From the NCBI GenBank assembly GCA_050304475.1, contig JBNLDQ010000009.1, positions 236,360 through 300,359 of the forward strand: 64,000 nt of DNA, written 5' to 3'. The DNA comes from Turneriellaceae bacterium. GTDB taxonomy: Bacteria; Spirochaetota; Leptospiria; Turneriellales; JAOUFE01. The notes below the pieces were generated by a model. The model was not told the origin of the DNA. It saw nothing but the letters and a program-made list of their open reading frames with translations, and did not search any database. Shown one piece after another: positions 8,644 through 38,454 of the stretch. The translations under genes were made by a program, and so were the position numbers. The first letter of the stretch is position 1, and every line of letters starts with the position of its first letter.

Positions 8644-9342
8644 ATGGACCAATACACAGATAATAAAATCGCCCGGATCACCGGCATCATCGGCTTGCTC
8701 TCTTTGGCATTTTTCATGCTTGCCATAGGAATTGCCCAGTACGTACCGGTTCCGGTGAAAGAACTATCGCTTGTGCGAATTGCCGAAACCAAAGACGATT
8801 GGGCATTGATTGCAGCTATCGCTATTTCCATCTATGCGTCGCCCGGGATGTTGTTGCTAGGTTATCATTACTACCTGGGGTTACGTCCGGCGGGTAATAT
8901 CTTTTCTCTTACAGCTACCTTCCTTTTCACTTTTGCAATGTTAATGGCATTGGCAACGCATGTCGCCCAAGTGTACTCAATATTGGCAATTAAATATGGC
9001 GCCGAAGCGGAAAAAATCCCGCTGGTTTACGAAAACCTTTTGGCGACCCTCTCGGGCAACCTGCAGTGGTCATTGATCATCTCGGCATTGATTGCCTGGA
9101 TCGCCATCTGGTGGAAAAAAACCAACTACCCCTACTGGGTATCGCGCACAAACCCTCTTTTCTTGATTTTCCTGTTTGCTTTTATCTCCCGCGCCATGCC
9201 CCCGGAAGTGGCCGGTTTCTACCACCCCACCCGGTTTTATATGGGCATGTTCATTTTTTTCGCCATCTCCGTGGGTGTCCTCTGGAACAATACGAAAATT
9301 GACGATCGCGCCTACCAGAAAGAGGCAAATGCCGCTAAATAG
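8644..9342 (+). CDS. Integral membrane protein (DUF6796-like)
   Basis: About six hydrophobic segments; LGYHYYLGLRP and TNYPYW...NP motifs; ATG 8644 follows GAGAGG. Confidence 0.55.
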   Translation: MDQYTDNKIARITGIIGLLSLAFFMLAIGIAQYVPVPVKELSLVRIAETKDDWALIAAIAISIYASPGMLLLGYHYYLGLRPAGNIFSLTATFLFTFAMLMALATHVAQVYSILAIKYGAEAEKIPLVYENLLATLSGNLQWSLIISALIAWIAIWWKKTNYPYWVSRTNPLFLIFLFAFISRAMPPEVAGFYHPTRFYMGMFIFFAISVGVLWNNTKIDDRAYQKEANAAK

Positions 9343-9361
9343 CGGCGCCACATAAATCGCA

Positions 9362-9483
9362 ATGAAAATGTAAAAGGGGCAAGTGGCCCTGACGTGCATG
9401 GAGGCACTAATGCCGTCGGATGGATGGCGAGAGACGGCCTGACATGCAGGCCGGCGATCCACCGCCACCCCGGCGATTTATCC
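9362..9483 (+). repeat. Distal modules of the intergenic repeat family (GGGGCAAG / ATGGA / AGGCCGGCGA / GCCACCCCGGCG)
   Basis: 9378-9417 aligns ungapped with 38521-38560 at 26/40 identities, mostly transitions. GCCACCCCGGCG..TTATCC recurs on the minus strand at about 16210-16230. Confidence 0.55.
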
Positions 9484-9544
9484 TTGCGCTTTTCGTTTGT
9501 TGTAAATTCCGCTTCGCTTTATGTTACTTTCGTTGTTAGTGTTA

Positions 9545-9636
9545 TTGCCCACAAACCCACCACCCCACCCATATATGGGTGGGGGCAAAAATACCGAAAA
9601 TTTTTCGGTTTCAGTGATTCAATAGCCGCTTTTTCG
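9545..9636 (+). repeat. Dispersed intergenic hairpin repeat, copy 2
   Basis: CCCACAAACCCACCA-CCCCACCCAT-AT-ATGGGTGGGG-GC...AAATTTTTCGG. Confidence 0.7.
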
Positions 9637-9884
9637 TTTTTTTTTCTTAAAAAAGAGTATTTTTAAAATTTTTATTCGGTCTGATCAGCCAAACTGCAGA
9701 AAATACCCGGACCGGAACATTTAATATTTTAATAAAACGCCCCGGAAAAAACAATGCAGTATCTCATCATAAAATTAAAATAATATAAAAAGTAGTTGTA
9801 GTAAGGATAAAAAATAATATTTTGCAATTACTTATTCTGCCATTGTTCCAGCGGAAGAAATAAAAGGGTCACGGGGAATAGTCC

Positions 9885-12800
9885 ATGAAAGAATACATGT
9901 ACCGCGGTGCGGTCAAACAAGCGGTTAAAATTTTATGCGCCGCCTCGTTCATTATTGCCATTGGCACGACCTTTTATATCATCGGAAAAACCACACGCAT
10001 CAATCAAACAAATAGCGCTCACATGATAGAGATGGGCCGCATAACGGCAGCAAAACTTTCGTTAAAATTAAGCGTACTGAAAACAGCGGCTTTTGAGATG
10101 AGCCGTAAAATGGAACAATTTTCATACAACGCAAAAACAAGTGAAATTTATCTGGCTCTTGAAGATGTCGTAACGCAAGTTGAAAAAAATATGGAACAAT
10201 ATGTTACCGGACTTTGCCAAAGCGAATCGACGGAATACCAGGTCTATTCGGGAATTTGCGACAATCTTACACCCGGCGATTTTCAAAGCGATATTTTTCA
10301 AATCGGTCTGGGGATGGTACCGGAGCTCAATGACGGCAAAACGTTTCGCCTCGGTTCAAATATCCGAACCGGCCAACCCCATTTGTTTCTTCCATACATT
10401 AGAAAAAAAGGATTGGAAGAGAGAGTCCCCGAAGATTGTATCGACCCCGGCAAAAACTCAAAATATTACCATTGTACGGGAGTCGATACACCGCTTGAAA
10501 ATGTCCGTGATACAAATCTGGATTACTCCAGCAGGCTCAACCCGTTGGATTGGTACCAAAAGCCGCTCCGGTACGGAAACTCTTGGGTGCCCCCTTACTT
10601 TGACGATTTTACCGACGCATACTTGATCGAATACGGCACAACCTTTCACCGCAAAGGCTTTGCCAAACCCGCCGGGGTGATCTATGTAAATTATGATTTT
10701 CATACAATGGACTCCATTGTTGAAAAACTGGATTTAGGCGAAACCGGATACCTGGTCGGCTTTCATCGCCTTGAAAATTGCCAGCGCCATAAAAAAACGC
10801 TCTTGCCCGAAGAACGAAAATATTTATACGAACCCAATGTTTTTATTCACCCGGTCTGGGAAAACGTTGGCCAGAAAAAAACCATGTATGACGTTTTCAA
10901 TATTTATGAGCCCCAAGAGGCGGAAGATCCGGACAATTTTGAAAATGAAGAGCGGGAGCGCTGCAACAGCGACTATAGCCTTCACCCGCTAACCGATGCC
11001 GGCACCACAAAAGATCTCTACTGGAAAGAATACCGGGAAGAACATGAAAACGACATGCAAAATTCCAACGCCTCAAAATCAATCCATACCATGATGCACC
11101 TCGCCCTGGACGGTTACTCCGGTTTAATTGACTACCGATACGCCGAAGACGACGAGCAAAAGACGATACACCGCAAATTTCAAGAAGGGCAGATGGCATA
11201 CTACGGAGCTTTTAAGCCCGAAATTATTGGCGAGAAGGTTAAAACGAATGACCGTTGGGGGTTTATTTTGTTCCCCGACCAAACCTTGAGCAAAGAGATT
11301 GCCTATGAAAAACGAATACTGATTCCAACGTTTATCGCCTATCTTCTTGCTTTTATTCTGACGTTGTTTTTATCAATCGGTTACCGAAACGAATGGAGCG
11401 TAAGAAGCGTTTGGGCGATTGTTTTATTCTCTTCCGTTTTATTGATCATCGTGATTAACCTGATCTGGAAAATGGACAACATTATCCAGGCTGAAAAAAT
11501 ATTTGAAATGAATCCTGTTTTGCATTCCGGCTCTTATGACGACTATCTATCCGATATTGAAAAAAAACTAATCCGCCGTATCAAAGGCTCGCCCGACTTG
11601 TATCGCAACCTGGAAGAAGATTGGGTAACCGGAAAGCGTAGATTTGGCAAATTGTACTACCGAGTGCCTACGGGCGTTTATATACAATCTCTTAAGTTTG
11701 AAGGCGCTAACGATGTCCATGTTTCAGGCGTCGTCTGGCAAAAATATTCGCTGCCGATGCAAAAAGCGTTAGACGATGAATCTCTGATGAGTGTCTATTT
11801 CCCGGAAGCGGTAGATTACTCCATGGACAAGAAATTTGACATGCAGTATTCATGTTCGCCTGGCGCGCCGTCCGGCTTGGACAACCAGGCAAAAATTGAC
11901 CGTGTAATAGCCGGCTTTTTACAATCTCCGCCGCAAACGCGGCGACCGGTGAATAAAAAGTATACGAAAGCGGAAGTCGCCTACCGTGATAAAGTGGAAT
12001 GGGTAAAACAAAACTGCAAACGGGTGATTGGCTGGTCTTTTGCGGCGACCTTACGCCAGGAATTCAATTACCATAAATATCCGTTAGACCATAAAGATAT
12101 TTGGATTCGCCTGACCGGTCCCTCTATGAAACGCATTGTACTGGTTCCCGACCTGGCTTCATACACCGATATTTACCCTCCCGCCTTGCCAGGCCTTGCC
12201 GACCGGGATATCTTACCGGGGTGGGATATTCAAAATTCTTTCTTTAACTATGAGTCGAATTTGTACAAAACTCCCAACGGACCCGAGACAAAGCGTGGCG
12301 TTCAAGACCGGCAAATTGGGTGGGAAAAACCCGCCATGGGCGTAGATCAGGATTTTTCGCTGGCAAACTCGCCGGAACTCTACTATCATATAACGGCTTC
12401 ACGGGTTTTTATCAACGCCTTTATTAAAAATTTAATTCCCTTGCTGGTTGTCGCTTTTATTCTCTTTGCCACATTGCTCACCATCACGGGCAACGCCGCT
12501 AAACGAGAAGTGCTCGGTTTTAACCATTCCACAATTATCGCCGCCTGTTCCGGGCTGTTCTTTACGGTTCTTTTGGCTCATATCCAATTGCGCAGCGAGT
12601 TTGAAGTTGAACAAGTGCTTTATCTCGAGTATTTTAATTTTATTCTTTATGTAATGATCTTACTGGTGGCTCTCATGTCATTTTTATTCACCAGCAGCTT
12701 AGAGACAAAAATTCTCGATTACCGGGATAATTTAATCTCGAAGGTTTTATTCTGGCCGCTCATCTTTCTCTTTCTATTGCTGATCACACTTTACATTTTT

Positions 12801-12890
12801 TGGCCGACATTTGACATTTCCGAAAACGGAGAAAACAAAACAACGGCAATGATGGCAACGCCGCTCCGGGGCCGGAGTTCCGTGAATTAA
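9885..12890 (+). CDS. Cache-domain-fused prokaryotic pentameric ligand-gated ion channel (Pro-loop receptor)
   Basis: N-terminal TM, dCache-like DWY...WVPPYFD...GVIYVNY...LGETGY, two TMs, pLGIC ECD (VPTGVYIQSL, VSGVVWQKY, Pro-loop FNYHKYPLDHKDIWIRL, LPGWDI), then SR...KNLIP M1 and four TM helices. Confidence 0.85.
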   Translation: MKEYMYRGAVKQAVKILCAASFIIAIGTTFYIIGKTTRINQTNSAHMIEMGRITAAKLSLKLSVLKTAAFEMSRKMEQFSYNAKTSEIYLALEDVVTQVEKNMEQYVTGLCQSESTEYQVYSGICDNLTPGDFQSDIFQIGLGMVPELNDGKTFRLGSNIRTGQPHLFLPYIRKKGLEERVPEDCIDPGKNSKYYHCTGVDTPLENVRDTNLDYSSRLNPLDWYQKPLRYGNSWVPPYFDDFTDAYLIEYGTTFHRKGFAKPAGVIYVNYDFHTMDSIVEKLDLGETGYLVGFHRLENCQRHKKTLLPEERKYLYEPNVFIHPVWENVGQKKTMYDVFNIYEPQEAEDPDNFENEERERCNSDYSLHPLTDAGTTKDLYWKEYREEHENDMQNSNASKSIHTMMHLALDGYSGLIDYRYAEDDEQKTIHRKFQEGQMAYYGAFKPEIIGEKVKTNDRWGFILFPDQTLSKEIAYEKRILIPTFIAYLLAFILTLFLSIGYRNEWSVRSVWAIVLFSSVLLIIVINLIWKMDNIIQAEKIFEMNPVLHSGSYDDYLSDIEKKLIRRIKGSPDLYRNLEEDWVTGKRRFGKLYYRVPTGVYIQSLKFEGANDVHVSGVVWQKYSLPMQKALDDESLMSVYFPEAVDYSMDKKFDMQYSCSPGAPSGLDNQAKIDRVIAGFLQSPPQTRRPVNKKYTKAEVAYRDKVEWVKQNCKRVIGWSFAATLRQEFNYHKYPLDHKDIWIRLTGPSMKRIVLVPDLASYTDIYPPALPGLADRDILPGWDIQNSFFNYESNLYKTPNGPETKRGVQDRQIGWEKPAMGVDQDFSLANSPELYYHITASRVFINAFIKNLIPLLVVAFILFATLLTITGNAAKREVLGFNHSTIIAACSGLFFTVLLAHIQLRSEFEVEQVLYLEYFNFILYVMILLVALMSFLFTSSLETKILDYRDNLISKVLFWPLIFLFLLLITLYIFWPTFDISENGENKTTAMMATPLRGRSSVN

Positions 12891-12891
12891 T

Positions 12892-15237
12892 ATGGAAACA
12901 AAATACGCAATACAGGAACAGCCCAACGATGTCAGTACGGAAACTCAAGTTGTGAGTTTTCTGAAAAACACAAAACTGTTTCAGGGAATTCCCGATACCG
13001 ATATCAAAAAAATAATCCCCCGCATGGAAATGATCAATGCGCCCACCGAAACGCGGATCATTAAAATGGGCGATATCAGCGATAAAATTTATTTAATTGT
13101 CAAAGGCCGGTGCAGCGTTTCTCTCCCGATGCGATACGACATGGGCGAACATAAATTGGCTTACTTAAAAACAGGCGAATGCTTTGGAGAGATGGGAGTC
13201 GTCACCAAAGAAAAACGCAGCTCAAATATTATTGCCGAAGCCGGCTCTCAAATCCTGGCGTTAAATGAAGATGTTTTTTGGCAAATGGCGGATTCGTCGC
13301 CTCTGATCAATAAAAACATTATTTCCATTTTGTGCGAACGCATTATCTTACGGCAAGACGGGCCGGTTTCCGGAGGCAGATCACCCATTAATTTGCAGAC
13401 CGAACAAAAGCAAATTCTAGACGATTTTGGCAATATCATTAAGGCGTATAGCGCCAATGTCTTTCATGAAAAAACACAGCGAAGCGTGCCGGCCGAAAAA
13501 AGAATCGGCCGAATCAAACGGTTCATTATGTTGAGAACCAACAATTTCGTCCGTTTTATTTTATCCATATTCACAAGACCTTACATCGCATCAGTAGAGG
13601 GTTTGGAAAACATACCGGATGAGCCTGTTATTTTTCTCATGAATTATCGCACCATTTTCGATTTTATTTTTTTTCTTACCGTCCATCGCAAGCTTTCGTC
13701 GCGAAGGAACGTTGTTTTCGGCTTGCAGCTTATCCCCCGGTTAAAGCCATTCTTTTTTATATTGCGGTATCTTTTTGCATCGCTGTTGATCGCTCCGCAA
13801 AGACGGGCCGATAACGACCCTTTGCATGGCTCTGAACAAGTGATTCACCTGGCAAAAGCGATGGAAGGCTCTAAACACAAAAAAATTGATATTGCTTTGC
13901 ATCCGTTTCTCGTGCGTTCCATGCGGTATGACAAACATCTGGAAGATGAACACTTTGAGATTTTTTTACATACGGGCGAAAAACGACCCATTGTTCCCGT
14001 TACATTGACCGGCACGGACAAATTCTGGCCCTTTGAACCTTGGGAGAGAAAATTTTTCAGGCTGCGGGCTTTTATTCAAATGAAGTCGGTTTCGGTTAAA
14101 ATTGGCAAGCCCATTGACCTAAGCCGGGAGGGGTACCGGGAAAAATTTGAAAAATGCAATGGCAAGGTTGAAAAAATCATTCGACTGAACAACAAGATGA
14201 ACGCTAAAATCGGATCGCAAATTGCCGGCCTCGAAGGTCTGGAATATAAACCGGACATTGAAAATGATGCGCACGGTTCAGGCGTTATGCGGCTTTATAA
14301 TAAATCATGGAATAAAAAACTAAGCAAAATGCTGGCTTCGGGTCTTGAATTAAGAAAACACTTTGGCAAAGTTTCCATTAAAATACGTCATTTCATATGG
14401 CATGCCGAAATGCTGAATGTCGCTCTCGAGCACCTGGAATCCGAAGGGTACCCGTTCCCGGCATGGGTGAAAGGAAATTTAATCAAAGGGACAAGTCATG
14501 CGGATATGGAGTACCCGTATTGGTCGATGGATCATTCGTATAACCCGTACAACCAAAAAGGCTTAAAGATGTTTTGTATCCAGTTTCCCGACTTAATGAC
14601 TTCGATGAAAAAATCTCTTGATAAATTAATGAAAAAAATCGATCGGGGCGAGTCTTTTGAACTCATATTAAATGACATTGGTAAAATTTATCACCTTATG
14701 GCGGACCTGGCCGTCCCGGCGCATGTGCATAATATCCCGCATATGTTTATCGATGTACCCCGGATTGGCAAATGCGACTTTGAGGAATTCCTGGGTTTGG
14801 ATGAACAACTCGTCGAGTTGAGCCAATACGATATCAAGGACATTTCTTCCATACGGGTATCAAACTTTGACGAATTTTATCATTGCCTCGATTATATCGC
14901 GCGCCATACATTTTTAAATTCATGTTACTCTATGGATGATTTAAATGAAGTGGCGAAAAAAAGAATGATCACCCGATACCATGATAAAAAAGATCTTTTT
15001 CAAAAATTCAAACGGATGGGAATCACCGTTTCTCCTGTCCAGGGTTTCCAGGACAAGGAACTTTACTATGTGCGTAATTTAACGACGGAACAATGCAAAG
15101 AAGTTTCGTCTAACGTCGTCTATTTTGCGGTTCGGCATATTCTTCCCTGTTTTATTTTCCTGTTACAGGCCGTAAATGAACGGATGATGAAACTGGATGG
15201 CTCCAGGCAGCCCCCAACCAAAGTAACTTACAAATGA
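12892..15237 (+). CDS. Fusion protein: cNMP-binding domain + PlsC-like acyltransferase + Zn-dependent phospholipase C/P1-nuclease-like domain
   Basis: GECFGEMGVVTKEKRSSNIIA (phosphate-binding cassette); VEGLENIP..VIFLMNYRTIFD..PIVPVTLTG..VKIGKPI (LPLAT fold); WH...SHAD...DHSYNP...IGKIYHLMADLAVPAHVH...DFE (Zn-PLC ligands). Confidence 0.75.
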   Translation: METKYAIQEQPNDVSTETQVVSFLKNTKLFQGIPDTDIKKIIPRMEMINAPTETRIIKMGDISDKIYLIVKGRCSVSLPMRYDMGEHKLAYLKTGECFGEMGVVTKEKRSSNIIAEAGSQILALNEDVFWQMADSSPLINKNIISILCERIILRQDGPVSGGRSPINLQTEQKQILDDFGNIIKAYSANVFHEKTQRSVPAEKRIGRIKRFIMLRTNNFVRFILSIFTRPYIASVEGLENIPDEPVIFLMNYRTIFDFIFFLTVHRKLSSRRNVVFGLQLIPRLKPFFFILRYLFASLLIAPQRRADNDPLHGSEQVIHLAKAMEGSKHKKIDIALHPFLVRSMRYDKHLEDEHFEIFLHTGEKRPIVPVTLTGTDKFWPFEPWERKFFRLRAFIQMKSVSVKIGKPIDLSREGYREKFEKCNGKVEKIIRLNNKMNAKIGSQIAGLEGLEYKPDIENDAHGSGVMRLYNKSWNKKLSKMLASGLELRKHFGKVSIKIRHFIWHAEMLNVALEHLESEGYPFPAWVKGNLIKGTSHADMEYPYWSMDHSYNPYNQKGLKMFCIQFPDLMTSMKKSLDKLMKKIDRGESFELILNDIGKIYHLMADLAVPAHVHNIPHMFIDVPRIGKCDFEEFLGLDEQLVELSQYDIKDISSIRVSNFDEFYHCLDYIARHTFLNSCYSMDDLNEVAKKRMITRYHDKKDLFQKFKRMGITVSPVQGFQDKELYYVRNLTTEQCKEVSSNVVYFAVRHILPCFIFLLQAVNERMMKLDGSRQPPTKVTYK

Positions 15238-15686
15238 TTTAAGGACCACCCCAGCAAGGCTGTGATCACCCCGGCAATCAAGGCGGTTCGGTCAATGAAA
15301 GGAGAAATCCTGGCTGCCTTTTCCAGAGCCGTCCGGTTGCCTTGTTTGGTCCATTTTTTTTTCAAGGGCCGCAAAATAAAATGACCGGTATACGCGGCCC
15401 CTAGCGAGATAACCGCAAAAGCTATTTTCAATGTCAAATGAAAGTTTTTTACGGCCAACGGCCAGGTGGCAATCACGAGAATCACGCCAGTGATTCCCAC
15501 GATAAGAATCACTGCGTCGACGACCGGGTGCAGGTAATCCTTAATCAAGCTCTTACCGGATTCCTTCCCCGGGCTTTCCGGGATTCTTTTCATGATGTTC
15601 GATACTAGAATTTGCATCATGAGCATGACAAAAACAAAAGCGGAAGCCGTAATGATATGAAAAAAAACAACCCAGGAATACCACAT
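15228..15686 (-). CDS. Four-TM membrane protein (CopD/DUF4149-like)
   Basis: FFHIITAS N-terminal His and four hydrophobic helices. Confidence 0.55.
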   Translation of the reverse strand: MWYSWVVFFHIITASAFVFVMLMMQILVSNIMKRIPESPGKESGKSLIKDYLHPVVDAVILIVGITGVILVIATWPLAVKNFHLTLKIAFAVISLGAAYTGHFILRPLKKKWTKQGNRTALEKAARISPFIDRTALIAGVITALLGWSLNHL

Positions 15687-15779
15687 AGAAAACTAATGTA
15701 TAAAACTTTATGAAATTCGACTATTTTGATCTCTTTTTATTTGTTCTGTACAAATGATTTCCCCGCTTTTCGCTGGGAC

Positions 15780-16172
15780 ATGTTGCATACGCTGGAAATC
15801 AACACAAAGCGGCGCGAAGAGATGATCGATATCACGCGGCAAGTCCGCGAGGCAATCGGCGCCTCCGGAAAACAAGACGGAGTGGCTCTGGTGTTTATTC
15901 CTCATACCACCTGTGCGGTCACAATCAACGAAAATGCGGATCCGGACGTTCAGCATGATATTTTGCGCTATTTAAAGTCGAGGATTCCGAAAGAGGACGG
16001 CTTCAGGCATTTTGAGGGCAATTCGGATGCGCACATTAAGACACTGCTGACCGGCAATTCGGTACAGGTCATTTTTAACGGGGGTGAGCCTGTGCTGGGC
16101 ACCTGGCAGGGGATCTATTTTTGCGAATACGACGGTCCGCGTTCGAGAAAATGCCATGTGAAAATTTTATAG
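15780..16172 (+). CDS. yjbQ: YjbQ/UPF0047 family protein
   Basis: FIPHTTCAVTINENADPDV, HFEGNSDAHIK and LGTWQGIYFCEYDGPR motifs. Confidence 0.92.
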   Translation: MLHTLEINTKRREEMIDITRQVREAIGASGKQDGVALVFIPHTTCAVTINENADPDVQHDILRYLKSRIPKEDGFRHFEGNSDAHIKTLLTGNSVQVIFNGGEPVLGTWQGIYFCEYDGPRSRKCHVKIL

Positions 16173-16292
16173 ATTGCCTGTTGTGGAATTCCACATCACA
16201 TGTATCGCCGGATAAGACGCCGGGGTGGCGCAGGCTCATTTGCCGTATAGAGCAAATTTTGCGAAATATCCTGAAAAAAAGCTTTTGAAAAG

Positions 16293-16369
16293 GCGATTCT
16301 TTATAAAGAACCTGAAAAATTTGCCCTTCTTCCAGCCCCACCCATCAGGGTGGGGGTGGTTAGGGAAAA
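16293..16369 (-). repeat. Dispersed intergenic hairpin repeat, copy 3
   Basis: Minus strand TTTTCCCTAACCACCCCCACCC-tgat-GGGTGGGGCTGG...AAATTTTTCAGGTTCT...AATCGC; closest to the copy at 4896-4969. Confidence 0.75.
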
Positions 16370-16445
16370 AACACAAATAGCCGGAGCCAGGGGCAGGCTT
16401 GCCCCTTTTTTATTTTCATCCATCGAAAAAAATAGCGATTTTGCG

Positions 16446-16528
16446 CGATTACATGCTTAGAGGTGAAAAATATTCGCTTCCGGTGCCCCCTCCCATCTGA
16501 GGGGTGGGGGGAGGGTTAGCGGGAAAAA
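16446..16528 (-). repeat. Dispersed intergenic hairpin repeat, copy 4 (in tandem with copy 3)
   Basis: Minus strand TTTTCCCGCTAACCCTCCCCCCACCC-ctcagat-GGGAGGGGGCA...ATATTTTTC; starts a few nt after the TonB-like gene stop. Confidence 0.75.
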
Positions 16529-16535
16529 ACAAGCG

Positions 16536-19049
16536 CTACTCCCAATAGTAAGAGATCATAGCGCGGTAAGTGCGGCCCCCCCGCGTTTCCACAGAGTCGC
16601 GGAATTGTTCGCCCGCAATGCTGTATTCGTACAGTTCGGATCTTGAGTCAATCAGATTGTAAATATCAAAAAAGCTTTCCAGCCGGCCGCCCGAAACCGG
16701 TTTGTGATATGAAAAGCGCATATCCCAACAAAAATAGTAGGTAAAACGCGGCATGCCATCCGGCGGTTCGGAGCGGTTTTGGTTCTGAACAATCACAGGT
16801 CCTTGGGAAAGGCCCTCCAGCGCCATCATTTGACCAAACGGCTCTCCGTCGCGGTAGCGTATGAGGTTAGACCAAACAAACCCGTCAAAAGGACGCCAAC
16901 CGGCAATCACATGGCCTACATAACTTCGGTCAAAATCAATACGCGCCAATTGGTTGATTTGCTTGTTGGGATCAGCCGAGCTTTCGCTGATTCTCCCCAT
17001 GTCATTATAGTCCGGTCCATTGCCAATGATTGTCTCGGCCTGGCCGTAATACGCACCGGCAATGAAATTCACAAACCAGTGCGACGAAACGGATTCCATT
17101 TTTAAAATTTGAAGCTCTAAATTAGCGTACAGACCCGGCTCGGTGCGATTGGTCAACAGATAAAGTTCATGGCCGGCTGCAGCGGGGTCGCGATTGTAGG
17201 CGTAACCTTCGCGCGTGTCCGGGCGGTTCACGCGGCTGTAGCCCCCGTTTGCATAACCCATTTCGGGATCATAAACGATGGTGTATAAATTCTGAAAATG
17301 TTTTAGGTGAGCAGAAAAAGCGATAGACCATAAATTTGCGATCGGTTTTCCGGTTCCCAGGTAAATTTCATTGCGCCGCGCCGGTTTTAAGTTTTCATCA
17401 ACCCGGTGAAATGCGCCTCCGGTCCGGTTGATGAGACCTCCGGTTTCATTTGCTTCCGGGATCAAATCGCCGTCGTCGTTCCAGAAATAGCGGGTTCCGG
17501 TTGGGGCGGATGCGTTCGCAAAGACGGCGACATCATTCGTTAACGGGATAGCGTCACTTTGCGCTCCTGTGTACAAGTTCCATTTGCCCAGGTTTTTTTC
17601 AAGGCGAACGGAAGCCACAGGAGCCAACAACCCGAACCGGTTCTTTTTCGATTCGGGCGATTCCGGTAAAAAACCTTCATATTGAACGCCGCCCCGGATC
17701 TGCATTGAACCTCCGGAGATGCCGGCGATGTATTCTCCCGTTGGGGATAACCGTACCATATCATGCGCATATGGCGCGCTGTTTTCAAAGACAGTCATAT
17801 CTGCCGGCGAACCCAAGTATGTACGGGCGAGCAAATTGTCCTGGTAAAGACTTTTGGCAGCGACTCTTTCAATCCGTGTATAAATTATGCCGTTGATGGC
17901 GCCTTGCGAAAAAGAAGCGAGGTTGTTTTTTTGATAACGGGCGCCAAAAAAAGTCGCCGTCTGTTCATAGGGACGGTGCGGATTTCGGTACAGTATTTCG
18001 TCATAGAGATCCCATACCATGGGCGAGTCTTTTTTTTGCAGGTAGCGATCAAAACGATACCCTAAATTCAATGACAACTCATGGTCTTGGTTGGCCGCTT
18101 CATACCCGGCAAACAAGGCATGGTAACCGCCTGCGAGCGCCAACGAAGGGTCTTGGCTTGTTTCTATCCCCGCCTGGTCGCGTTCGCTACCTTGGTACAT
18201 AAAGTCAAATTGCCCGCTTGGCAAACTTTGCGAGTACAAAAAGGTTTGCCGGTACGCTTCTTCATAACCGCTCAGCTTCATAAACGTTCGGGTATGTCTG
18301 TCCAGTTCGTACATTGCCATGGCAGGGTTCCCGCCTATCCCCGAAAAGGCATAACCGGCGGAGCCTTCTACGGAAGGGCCGAATTTGCGCCTTTCCGGCG
18401 AGGCGCCCCAGGCTGTCGATGGTTCGCGGTCTGAAAAACCGACCGGGATCCACGAATCGCCCCCTAAATGACCGGGGTTTGCCAAAGCCAAAAAAGTCCG
18501 GCCATCGTTTAGGGGGTGAAAATTCCATTGGTAGCCCTGCTCGTGCAGATAAAGCGACAGAGGCGAATGAATGGAAAACGTGTTCCAAAACCGGACCGGC
18601 AGGTCGATGAAAGGCCGGCCGGGGTGCCCCGGGTCGCTCAAGTCATGGTTATTGTAGCGATAGCGTTGCCAGCGATTAGATTCGCCATGCAAGCTAATGT
18701 CGTGCGGTTCTACCAATGAAAATCCGCCGGTATCCGGGTTTGACAAGATTGCCCCGGAATACCATGATTCCAGAAGAGAAAAGGTATGGCCGCCGTTTGG
18801 CAAGCGTGCAATGTCATTTCCGGTGAAGGCAAGGTTTTGAAAATTCCAGACGGCAACCGGTTCTTCAACTGTTTTTCTACCCGGCGTTTCGGGTATGGTT
18901 TCGGAAAATTTCTCTTGCGATGAGTCTTGCAAAGTTACCGGGTTTTCTTGCGCTGTCATTTGATACAACGGCGCATGGAAACTCCAGAACGCGGCAAAAA
19001 TTACTATGGCGATTTTTCGAGTTTGTATCATTTTTGCGTTCCGATTCAT
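16536..19049 (-). CDS. TonB-dependent-receptor-like outer-membrane beta-barrel protein
   Basis: Signal peptide, plug-like LPNGGHTFSLLE...HGES, beta-strand alternation, FFDIYNLID near the end and an aromatic C-terminus (MISYYWE). Confidence 0.7.
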   Translation of the reverse strand: MNRNAKMIQTRKIAIVIFAAFWSFHAPLYQMTAQENPVTLQDSSQEKFSETIPETPGRKTVEEPVAVWNFQNLAFTGNDIARLPNGGHTFSLLESWYSGAILSNPDTGGFSLVEPHDISLHGESNRWQRYRYNNHDLSDPGHPGRPFIDLPVRFWNTFSIHSPLSLYLHEQGYQWNFHPLNDGRTFLALANPGHLGGDSWIPVGFSDREPSTAWGASPERRKFGPSVEGSAGYAFSGIGGNPAMAMYELDRHTRTFMKLSGYEEAYRQTFLYSQSLPSGQFDFMYQGSERDQAGIETSQDPSLALAGGYHALFAGYEAANQDHELSLNLGYRFDRYLQKKDSPMVWDLYDEILYRNPHRPYEQTATFFGARYQKNNLASFSQGAINGIIYTRIERVAAKSLYQDNLLARTYLGSPADMTVFENSAPYAHDMVRLSPTGEYIAGISGGSMQIRGGVQYEGFLPESPESKKNRFGLLAPVASVRLEKNLGKWNLYTGAQSDAIPLTNDVAVFANASAPTGTRYFWNDDGDLIPEANETGGLINRTGGAFHRVDENLKPARRNEIYLGTGKPIANLWSIAFSAHLKHFQNLYTIVYDPEMGYANGGYSRVNRPDTREGYAYNRDPAAAGHELYLLTNRTEPGLYANLELQILKMESVSSHWFVNFIAGAYYGQAETIIGNGPDYNDMGRISESSADPNKQINQLARIDFDRSYVGHVIAGWRPFDGFVWSNLIRYRDGEPFGQMMALEGLSQGPVIVQNQNRSEPPDGMPRFTYYFCWDMRFSYHKPVSGGRLESFFDIYNLIDSRSELYEYSIAGEQFRDSVETRGGRTYRAMISYYWE

Positions 19050-35799: not shown

Positions 35800-36914
35800 A
35801 AAAAGGTCATGTCGGAATCATCGGTTGCGCCTTCGTCTTCCAATAAACCATCCACCGTATAAATTTTCACCTCTTCCGATTTACCCCGGATACTGGATAC
35901 TTTGACAGGCCTGCTTTTTACTTTTGAATATACCGCGTCATAGGTTTTTCCGTCGATTAATATATCGGTGTCTATTTTTTTCGTGAGATTTTGCAGCCGA
36001 CTGGACGTATTGACGACATCTCCAATGACCGTGTACTCCATCCTGCGGTACGACCCGATATTCCCGGCAAAAACTTCGCCGGTGGCAATTCCGATGCCAA
36101 CTTTTAAACTTTCATCAAGATACTTGGGTTTGACCTGGTTAAAAAACTTAATGGTATTGGTAATTGCCAGGGCGCATTTCACTGAGTTATACGCATCGTT
36201 TTCAGTGTTAAACGGAGCGCCAAAGGTGGCTAAAATGGCATCGCCAATGAGCTTGTTCACGGAACCGTCATGGCTTAAAATTAAATCCATGACATCGGTA
36301 AAAATCAGGTTTAAAAGATCGGCAACCAAATCCGGTTTTAAACTTTCGCTGATCTTGGTAAAGTTGCGAATATCGAAAAACAAAATAGAAGCGGTTAAAT
36401 TTTCGCCGGAAAGTTTGGAGCGGTCATCCGAGGCGACAATTTTCGAGACAACGTCATCGGAAAAATAGTGCGATAAAATTTCTTTTTCGGCGACCAGTTT
36501 CATGTTCAGGGCGTCCAAAGCTTCGCGGTAAGCTCTCCGGTCCATGAGCTTCCGAAGCTTCAGGGCAAGTTCATGGGTTCGCACCGGTTTATAAATAAAA
36601 TCATCGGCTTGCTTCATCAGCCCCAAAATCGTAGTATCTTCGGATGTGTCGGCAGACATCATGACAATCACGGAATCTTCCAGGCGTTTGTCCGAACGGA
36701 TTTCATCGAGAATATCAATGCCGTTTTTCCCCGGCAAATAAACATCGAGCAAAATAATATCGGGAACCCATTCGAATGCCGCAGTAAGTCCGTCATCGCC
36801 GGTTTTTTCTTCGCGGACATCATACCCAAGACCTTCAAAGAACTTGATGAGAATTGCACTTTGCACTTCATCATCTTCAACGATCAGCATTTTTTCAGGC
36901 GCTTTTTTATCCAT
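35796..36914 (-). CDS. Response regulator with class III adenylate cyclase output
   Basis: REC (VEDD, LLDVYLP, KP) and cyclase (FFDIRNFT, NKLIGDA, EYTVIGDVVNTSSRLQ). The K/T specificity residues point to ATP as substrate. Confidence 0.9.
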   Translation of the reverse strand: MDKKAPEKMLIVEDDEVQSAILIKFFEGLGYDVREEKTGDDGLTAAFEWVPDIILLDVYLPGKNGIDILDEIRSDKRLEDSVIVMMSADTSEDTTILGLMKQADDFIYKPVRTHELALKLRKLMDRRAYREALDALNMKLVAEKEILSHYFSDDVVSKIVASDDRSKLSGENLTASILFFDIRNFTKISESLKPDLVADLLNLIFTDVMDLILSHDGSVNKLIGDAILATFGAPFNTENDAYNSVKCALAITNTIKFFNQVKPKYLDESLKVGIGIATGEVFAGNIGSYRRMEYTVIGDVVNTSSRLQNLTKKIDTDILIDGKTYDAVYSKVKSRPVKVSSIRGKSEEVKIYTVDGLLEDEGATDDSDMTFF

Positions 36915-38389: not shown

Positions 38390-38454
38390 TTCCCGCAAAC
38401 CCACCCCCCACCCAAAAGGGAGGGTGGCACAAGTGCCGCAAATTTTTCGCTCCC
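38390..38454 (+). repeat. Dispersed intergenic hairpin repeat, copy 5
   Basis: TTCCCGCAAACCCACCCCCCACCC-aaaa-GGGAGGGTGGCA...AATTTTTCGCTCCC, 4 nt after the xth stop. Confidence 0.75.

Follow-up and report, generated by a model that had tools for sequence, protein, structure and literature searches.

The 64,000-nt stretch of a Turneriellaceae genome analysed here (the window; contig JBNLDQ010000009.1, positions 236,360 to 300,359) carries two plus-strand genes separated by a single nucleotide. Gene 1 encodes a Cache-fused channel subunit with the pentameric ligand-gated ion channel (pLGIC) fold; gene 2 encodes a protein in which a cyclic nucleotide (cNMP)-binding (CNB) domain precedes a PlsC-type fold that has lost its catalytic histidine and a zinc-dependent phospholipase C (Zn-PLC) fold. 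Both families are rare, and members of the two adjoin again in a second genome, G435. Their association exceeds chance but is facultative. Because these rare families are neighbours in two unrelated genomes, in different order and next to channels that are not sisters, we read the locus as a facultative functional partnership of a channel and a cNMP/PLC-type protein at the inner membrane, a reading that we consider about evenly balanced between right and wrong. The layout of the locus is as follows.

9343..9884: upstream spacer of 542 nt, AT-rich, presumed promoter region of gene 1
9885..12890, plus strand: gene 1, 1001 aa, dCache-fused pentameric-ligand-gated-ion-channel (Pro-loop receptor) subunit
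12888..12894, plus strand: junction of gene 1 and gene 2, TAA-T-ATG, with GGAG 14 nt 5' of the ATG
12892..15237, plus strand: gene 2, 781 aa, cNMP-binding, His-less PlsC-fold and Zn-PLC-fold domains
15228..15686, minus strand: convergent gene for a 152-aa membrane protein, overlapping the end of gene 2 by 10 nt and closing the unit

An earlier note on this DNA had described two genes 1 nt apart that follow a long AT-rich intergenic region and end head-on against a convergent gene, and all three points stood up. The list of open reading frames (ORFs) and the junction sequence (...GTGAAT TAA T ATG GAA...) confirmed the 1-nt spacer. The preceding plus-strand ORF stops at 9342, and the GC content of the spacer drops to 0.35–0.41 in 400-nt windows, compared with 0.46 in the whole 64-kb window; inside it, a GC-rich palindromic hairpin (9565–9582) lies close to where the preceding gene stops, and the next ∼270 nt have 35–40% GC. 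No Rfam family matched at E≤1 in 9300–9950. The convergent ORF is, on sequence grounds, a real gene because homologs are present in 3/3 same-family genomes (0/17 further relatives). The 1-nt spacing suggests translational coupling, and genes 1 and 2 probably form a two-gene unit with one transcript. Promoter-like and terminator-like sites in 9300–15900 were not above shuffled expectation (14 versus 11.8 ± 4.0 and 15 versus 8.9 ± 3.0, respectively), so the transcription unit is drawn from the spacing only.

The channel subunit encoded by gene 1

Hydropathy, profile and structure searches divide the gene 1 protein into the following parts.

9930..9986, plus strand: first transmembrane (TM) segment, TM1, the N-terminal membrane anchor (residues 16–34; hydropathy scan)
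9987..11315, plus strand: periplasmic dCache-type sensor region (residues 35–477), unusually long, with an acidic insertion
11316..11465, plus strand: TM2–TM3 hairpin that brings the chain back to the periplasm (residues 478–527; hydropathy), kept in the family consensus
11466..12431, plus strand: pLGIC ligand-binding (extracellular) domain (residues 528–849)
12078–12089, plus strand: Pro-loop motif YPLD (residues 732–735)
12432..12800, plus strand: channel transmembrane domain M1–M4 (residues 850–972; model, Foldseek, hydropathy)

Residues 528–972 are predicted to adopt the pLGIC subunit fold, a beta-sandwich extracellular domain (ECD) followed by the four-helix bundle M1–M4. The AlphaFold (AF2) model of residues 540–1001 (pLDDT 70, pTM 0.67) has a beta-rich extracellular part, and a Foldseek search with it returned at least 500 matches at E≤1e-3. 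All of the matches listed, at E about 1e-10, were pLGIC chains (GLIC, GABA-A, DeCLIC, sTeLIC, GluCl, GlyR), with alignments spanning ∼400–447 columns across the ECD and the transmembrane domain (TMD) at TM-scores of 0.5–0.6 on the target. A channel-only profile searched against the PDB gave 48 matches at E≤1, all of them GLIC or GLIC chimeras; the family motif YP(L/F)D aligned with the GLIC Pro-loop (YPFD/FPMD), and the arginine preceding M1 was aligned as well. Positions Y193/P194/D196 of the Pro-loop were invariant or nearly so both in the 28-row gene 1 family alignment (A1) and in the 42-row alignment of the channel clade (A3; window 11502–12887 plus 41 homologs). At the level of the modelled fold, the identity of gene 1 as a channel subunit of the pLGIC superfamily is secure; a pentamer and its gating are predicted.

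Seven TM segments were found by hydropathy (16–34, 478–496, 509–527 and M1–M4 within 850–972), a topology that places both the dCache domain and the ligand-binding domain (LBD) in the periplasm. The TM2–TM3 hairpin aligns with that of the G435 homolog. On its own, the gene 1 protein matched Pfam dCache_1 at E 5e-4 (20 bits versus the 45-bit cut-off), and 25/28 family members matched the same model at E≤1; the family profile gave E 4.7e-27 for solved dCache sensors and only E 0.006 for GLIC. The sensor region is ∼160 residues longer than in most relatives and includes an acidic low-complexity insertion at ∼340–400; a comparably extended region is seen only in P0002–P0004 (795–945 aa). Scoring of the 7999 best word-sharing candidates yielded 27 relatives of residues 540–1001 at 28–40% identity, most of them ∼700 aa long with dCache domains. 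Another 46 relatives, shorter and Cache-less, are from Acaryochloris, Ruegeria, Halobeggiatoa and Psychromonas.

The Pfam models Neur_chan_LBD and Neur_chan_memb had no match at E≤0.1 on the gene 1 protein, and the Neur_chan models matched 0/42 members of the channel clade at E≤1. PF02931 gave no match at E≤10 in the whole genome, a search in which the control also gave none, and a single-sequence search of gene 1 against PDB sequences produced no useful match. The clade, which spans members with and without Cache domains from cyanobacteria, Ruegeria, Vibrio, Nitrospirota and Acidobacteriota, is recognisable only by its fold or by weak profile matches. Being invisible to the Pfam models, it is probably under-counted in surveys.

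The fusion of Cache and pLGIC in gene 1 is not new. Bacterial pLGICs fused to Cache/MCP-N domains, the ART-LGICs, were described by Tasneem, Iyer, Jakobsson and Aravind in 2004 (PMC549065), and in the available part of that paper they share with gene 1 an N-terminal Cache-type periplasmic sensor before the LBD and the four-TM core. A chemoreceptor-like role is proposed there, and the neighbourhoods reported include stand-alone Cache or periplasmic-binding-protein (PBP) genes. These neighbourhoods are echoed at two channels encountered here: an unlinked channel gene of G479 (L047:7595–9127, contig C104) is followed after 22 nt by a gene encoding a stand-alone dCache_2 protein, and a channel gene on a Vibrio replicon (L040:2391–3998) is preceded by a PBP-like ORF, as read from its translation. 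Unlike the ART-LGICs as far as the same portion of the paper describes them, the gene 1 clade escapes the Pfam Neur_chan models and has a TM hairpin between Cache and LBD; the window copy, at 1001 aa compared with ∼700 aa, has a much longer sensor region; and the portion available mentions no cNMP-binding or lipid-enzyme neighbour (PMC549065).

GLIC, ELIC and DeCLIC have served the pLGIC field as its main structural models. GLIC and DeCLIC share with gene 1 the subunit fold across ECD and TMD and the aligned Pro-loop (YPFD/YPLD) and pre-M1 arginine, but sequence identity is 10–18%. DeCLIC also has an extra N-terminal periplasmic domain, according to the parts of the two structural papers at hand (PMC9897478, PMC12664993); the additional domain of gene 1 differs from it in being a dCache domain attached through a TM hairpin.

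The three-domain protein encoded by gene 2

The gene 2 protein comprises three domains, listed here with the block I motif of the second.

12949..13356, plus strand: cyclic-nucleotide-binding domain (∼residues 20–155), with FGE and the phosphate-binding Arg in place
13594..14241, plus strand: PlsC/GPAT-fold domain (∼residues 235–450)
13642–13662, plus strand: block I, N-Y-R-T-I-F-D (residues 251–257), with Tyr at the position of the HX4D catalytic His and the Asp kept
14371..15201, plus strand: Zn-dependent phospholipase C/P1-nuclease-fold domain (∼residues 494–770)

The N-terminal domain scored 50.9 bits against the Pfam cNMP_binding model (27.5-bit cut-off), and in an alignment with PKA and PKG its FGE and the Arg of 'KRSS' coincided with the FGE and 'PRAA' of the PKA CNB domains. 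The genome (G000) contains 14 matches to class III cyclases (PF00211) in 13–14 genes, from which we conclude that cNMP input is available. It also encodes several further cNMP-binding proteins, a cNMP-rich signalling repertoire, and one PF00211 match lies in the window itself (∼35853–36392, minus strand), ∼20 kb downstream of gene 2.

Foldseek matched the middle domain of the AlphaFold model (pLDDT 77) to T. maritima PlsC (5kym, E 1.2e-4) and also to GPATs (GPAT1), PatA and LpxM, and all 30 of its ESM-Atlas language-model neighbours were assigned to Acyltransferase. The Pfam Acyltransferase model PF01553 was matched by 11/20 family members and had no match on the window's own gene 2 protein. 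Its match to P0031 (23.9 bits versus a 23-bit cut-off) starts at profile position 3 and thereby fixes the register of block I. The domain thus shares with PlsC/GPAT/tafazzin-type acyltransferases the fold, the GLENIP...block I register and a conserved block IV-like 'IVPVxxxGT'; it differs from them in that the HX4D His is replaced by Y, F or L in 19/19 members that include the region, with the Asp kept in 19/19. Because this histidine is missing throughout, the domain is probably not an acyltransferase; most likely it is non-catalytic and binds acyl chains or docks on the membrane. Canonical PF01553 enzymes are present elsewhere in the genome, and gene 2 is not the housekeeping PlsC.

The C-terminal domain matched PC-PLC in Foldseek (2huc/1ah7, E 2–3e-3, TM-score 0.57; 2huc, 1ah7, 2ffz and 8cqm at E 2e-3 to 7e-3) with a probability of 1.00 and TM-scores of 0.55–0.58 on the targets, which comprise B. 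cereus PC-PLC, Listeria PlcB and the N-domains of alpha-toxin. Of its 30 ESM-Atlas neighbours, 23 were Zn_dep_PLPC clusters. The Pfam model Zn_dep_PLPC (PF00882) matched 2/20 family members, the best being P0034 (E 0.0096, 16.3 bits versus a 26.8-bit cut-off), and gave no match on the gene 2 protein and none in the genome at E≤10. Single-sequence PDB searches with the divergent gene 2 domains returned nothing relevant and hence no residue alignment to a solved PLC. Within the family, the motifs RHFxWHAEM, DHSYNP, YHxxxDLxxPxHVHNxPH (YH601-x3-D605-x5-H611-V-H613-x3-H617) and GKCDFEE are invariant, with H500/W503/H504/E506, D538, H548, H601/D605/H611/H613/H617 and D629/E631/E632 as the invariant residues. 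The spacing H-x3-D-x5-H presumably corresponds to that of the PC-PLC zinc site, by reference numbering rather than by alignment. Hydropathy indicates that a long hydrophobic helix (∼732–768) closes the domain. The PLC-fold domain is most likely the catalytic part of gene 2, and its enzymatic activity is predicted from the modelled fold and the conserved residues.

Relatives of the 620-residue part outside the cNMP domain numbered 19 (43–73% identity), almost all ∼750–790 aa long and with the same N-terminal CNB domain. Gene 2 is thus a very rare, strongly conserved three-domain architecture of CNB domain, catalytically degenerate PlsC fold and Zn-PLC fold, for which we found no description in the limited collection of literature searched. 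Irrespective of its pairing with a channel, it is a candidate intracellular, cNMP-regulated phospholipase C in bacteria.

PC-PLC-type enzymes are secreted toxins or enzymes that use the free N-terminal Trp as a zinc ligand. PC-PLC, PlcB and the N-domain of Clostridium perfringens alpha-toxin (PF00882) share with gene 2 the helical fold and conserved His/Asp clusters; in contrast to these secreted proteins, the PLC domain of gene 2 is internal, cytoplasmic and fused to regulators, and PF00882 misses it. A fusion of cNMP-binding domain(s) to a membrane-lipid hydrolase is also found in NTE/PNPLA6, PNPLA7 and their bacterial relatives, as far as described in the accessible parts of PMC5704489 and PMC6852622. 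Unlike these patatins, gene 2 has a Zn-PLC-like fold and an additional His-less PlsC-like domain and belongs to a different protein family.

All five domain assignments proposed for the two proteins in the earlier note were thus borne out, at the level of fold or family profile, and in the models the domain identities of gene 2 are secure at fold level. The proposal that gene 1 combines a Cache sensor, a YPLD-bearing pLGIC ECD and four TM segments holds for the domains and for folding as a pLGIC, but the number of TM segments is seven. For gene 2, the intact cNMP cassette and the two lipid-handling folds were upheld, but the acyltransferase catalytic His is absent.

Association of the two gene families

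On contig C153 of G435, a gene 2 homolog (E 4.8e-36, 52% identity) is represented by its 3' end, and a gene 1 homolog comes 395 nt further on along the same strand, so that gene order is the reverse of that in the window. The channel homolog is a 706-aa Cache-pLGIC recognised by the A1 profile at E 4.7e-202 and by BLASTP at 8e-40 over hairpin, LBD and TMD; the homolog lists had missed both this channel (28% identical) and the gene 2 fragment. That the genome samples are disjoint indicates that G435 shares its phylum with the Deltaproteobacteria metagenome-assembled genome that contains L014, and not with the window.

In an IQ-TREE phylogeny of 41 channel parts, the G435 channel was sister to an unlinked channel of G479 (76% identity, support 100), and the channels of G431 and G643 fell into one group with these two (support 98); that of the window grouped with P0002–P0005 (support 94). 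Constraining the two linked channels together cost 132 log-likelihood units (p-AU 4e-134 in the approximately unbiased test), the constrained group being defined by an external trait, linkage, but named after a first FastTree had been viewed. The sequence phylogeny thus indicates that the linked channels of the window and G435 belong to separate, non-sister lineages. Between G435 and G479, similarity at the DNA level starts exactly at the start of the channel gene, which implies that gene 2 was gained or lost right there. In a 117-column FastTree without support values, and therefore weak, the gene 2 copies of the window and G435 clustered with P0030, P0031 and P0095, and the unlinked copies L015/P0041 formed a separate clade.

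A short pLGIC-like gene (364–366 aa) lies 25–31 nt downstream of the Cache-pLGIC gene in both G435 (L038:2897–3997) and G479 (L048:10516–11610). It has a VRYPLDDH Pro-loop and a Neur_chan_LBD match at E 0.02. The arrangement hints at an operon of two subunits or of paired channels; a second gene of this kind is absent from the window.

Neither family is common. No full-length relative of either protein occurs in 40 related genomes, and both genes are accessory because they are absent from the window's relatives. In the window's phylum, the channel part of gene 1 was found in 1/401 genomes (plus two marginal, TM-only matches) and gene 2 in 1/401 (plus one marginal partial match). An exhaustive HMMER search of 1.84 billion cluster representatives with the non-cNMP part of gene 2 gave 11 matches at E≤1e-3 and 6/1.84e9 at E≤1e-30 (two full-length, four fragments). 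The phylum of G435 has the channel family in 4/256 genomes, the three other channel-bearing genomes being without gene 2, and gene 2 in 2/401 genomes (plus one weak partial match); for the order and class of G435, 5 genomes were available for comparison. Among 401 genomes of the class of G430, only G430 itself has gene 2, and scans of plasmids and viral contigs found no gene 2 homolog. A 739-aa ORF of G732 (L027:928–3144, contig C57) matches only the PLC-type motif region of gene 2 (E 1e-6, query residues 419–477) and may be a remote relative with the PLC fold but a different architecture; its locus contains a masked N run.

In the favoured reading, extracellular small molecules would gate ion flux across the inner membrane through the gene 1 channel, whose core would bear a second periplasmic sensor (dCache) tethered by the N-terminal anchor and the TM hairpin. 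Gene 2 would be a cytoplasmic, membrane-peripheral protein whose C-terminal part, a metal-dependent phosphodiesterase of the phospholipase C type, is most likely under the control of the N-terminal cAMP/cGMP-binding domain. Two inputs would then converge on membrane ion flux and lipid state, an external ligand acting through the channel and an internal cyclic nucleotide acting through gene 2, and the two proteins may be coupled by gene 2 altering the lipid surroundings of the channel.

Several observations weigh against such a partnership. Linked instances number only two, the window and G435; the G435 contig holds only the last 117 residues of the gene 2 homolog, and its 395-nt gap allows separate transcription. 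At L015, where a complete gene 2 homolog has both flanks known, no channel-profile match was found at E≤10 in 16.6 kb; it is flanked by a metallophosphoesterase gene in divergent and by 2-oxoacid dehydrogenase genes in convergent orientation. The homolog at L014 in G430 has a divergent MazE/MazF-like pair upstream and a contig that ends inside the gene, and the only A1 match in the G430 assembly is a Cache histidine kinase. No channel-profile match was seen at L014–L018, and the downstream neighbours at L018 are gmk-like and rpoZ-like ORFs, named by eye. Conversely, no gene 2 homolog lies close to 6/8 channel genes inspected (those on the Acaryochloris plasmid and the Vibrio replicon, in G431 and in G643, and two in G479); the G479 channel pair is 74–76% identical to that of G435, with similarity ending exactly at the channel gene start. 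P0030, at 73% the nearest relative of gene 2, has no counterpart of similar closeness among the gene 1 relatives in the database searched, where the best reached 40%. As to the proteins themselves, the window's own pLGIC, acyltransferase and PLC regions reach no Pfam threshold, and the zinc-ligand mapping of the gene 2 His/Asp residues depends on PC-PLC numbering rather than on an alignment.

Two homologs of gene 2 have a reading frame broken into two that overlap (L014:1308–3184 at ∼2690–2910; L017:3–2160 at ∼1460–1545, a short repetitive stretch). They are either assembly errors or decaying copies, and no channel was seen near either.

The earlier note counted it as a refutation if homologues of the two genes were never adjacent elsewhere; a second adjacency does exist, in another phylum, but the pairing is not general, as it is missing at L015, from the G430 assembly and at the six unlinked channel genes. 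The module hypothesis of the note is not refuted and is partly supported, the mechanism being conjectural.

The strongest competitor, which we regard as possible though less probable than partnership, is that rare, horizontally moving accessory genes came to lie in the same insertion-tolerant spots. The two proteins would act independently, the channel sensing in the manner of a chemoreceptor and gene 2 being a lipid enzyme under cNMP regulation, and adjacency would reflect island structure. Most members of either family indeed occur without the other, unlinked channels lie beside a mixed set of genes (SIR2_2, RDD, a stand-alone dCache_2 protein, a PAS/GAF kinase, TerC and a PBP-like gene), and the window's relatives lack both genes, as expected of accessory genes. 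The differing gene order and the gap in G435 fit as well, and the divergence of G435 and G479 at the 5' edge of the channel gene is what a variable insertion point predicts. Against chance stand the rarity of both families within one phylum and two independent immediate adjacencies in ∼3-Mb genomes, very improbable at random (our estimate is <1e-3 each). Gene 2 is, moreover, the sole recurring neighbour, and the 1-nt spacing in the window points to translational coupling.

A bolder version of the partnership, which we think unlikely, is that the pLGIC forms a single membrane signalling circuit with a lipid phosphodiesterase of the PLC type gated by cNMP, in which the enzyme would remodel the inner-leaflet lipids that gate the channel or ion flux through the channel would feed the enzyme. 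To our knowledge, next to nothing has been established about what prokaryotic pLGICs do physiologically or which partners they have in the cell. If true, the circuit would give them the first cytoplasmic partner known for these channels, and receptor-coupled PLC signalling would have a counterpart in prokaryotes. Lipids strongly modulate pLGICs, according to the portion of PMC9221113 available, and a genetically linked, cNMP-controlled lipid enzyme would offer a concrete hypothesis testable by heterologous expression. The limited collection of literature searched contained no description of the pairing of gene 1 and gene 2.

We consider it improbable that gene 2 is a defence-type effector, a Pycsar/CBASS-like lipid degrader activated by cyclic nucleotides, with the channel unrelated or co-opted. 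Like Pycsar effectors, in which a CNB domain precedes TIR or TM killing modules, gene 2 has its CNB domain ahead of a potentially membrane-damaging module, here a lipid-hydrolase fold. Its distribution is patchy, and the PADLOC models PycTIR and 'Effector TIR' matched gene 2, P0030 and the L015 homolog (E 1e-8 to 1e-12). Some neighbours have a defence flavour (the MazE/MazF-like pair at L014, SIR2_2 near a G479 channel and a Macro-domain gene at L038). The PADLOC matches are, however, confined to the generic CNB domain (residues ∼15–155), and neither the effector part nor either channel matched any PADLOC model. In the window and at L014, L015 and L038, none of the adjacent genes encodes a nucleotide cyclase, the nearest PF00211 match in the window being the one ∼20 kb away; the many cyclases of the genome point to ordinary cNMP signalling, and the neighbour, unlike in Pycsar, is a ligand-gated channel.

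Equally improbable is a different enzymology, with a P1/S1-type nuclease or another phosphodiesterase at the C-terminus or a PlsC-like domain active through another residue: the PLC and P1-nuclease families share a fold and the HX4D Asp and block IV-like motif are conserved, but plant bifunctional nucleases matched more weakly (4cxv E 0.16, 3w52 E 0.23) than PC-PLC, PlcB and the alpha-toxin N-domains, the Atlas neighbours are Zn_dep_PLPC clusters, the HX4D His is uniformly replaced, and the fusion partner, a fold of membrane-lipid enzymes, speaks for a lipid substrate.

Surroundings of the locus

Inverted repeats at 9362–9612 and 16210–16419 were considered as the boundary of a mobile element and rejected because two vertically conserved genes sit inside the bracket; the repeats reduce to a short GC-rich palindrome. 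A test for insertion by synteny was limited by the distance of the relatives, the gene of the upstream flank having homologs only in G002 and G003 (same-family genomes) and the downstream UPF0047 gene only in G001 among the same-family genomes. The palindrome, CCACCC-loop-GGGTGG, occurs in three copies in the 64 kb (9565–9582, 16338–16353 and 38408–38427), all intergenic, where shuffling predicts 0.01 copies, and a variant lies near 16480. Two of the copies flank the 9.6–16.3 kb segment. The palindrome probably represents a hairpin of the terminator or REP kind. Beyond the second copy, an 837-aa ORF on the minus strand (16536–19049) begins with a stretch resembling a signal peptide, matches no Pfam family at E≤0.1 and may encode an uncharacterised outer-membrane protein.

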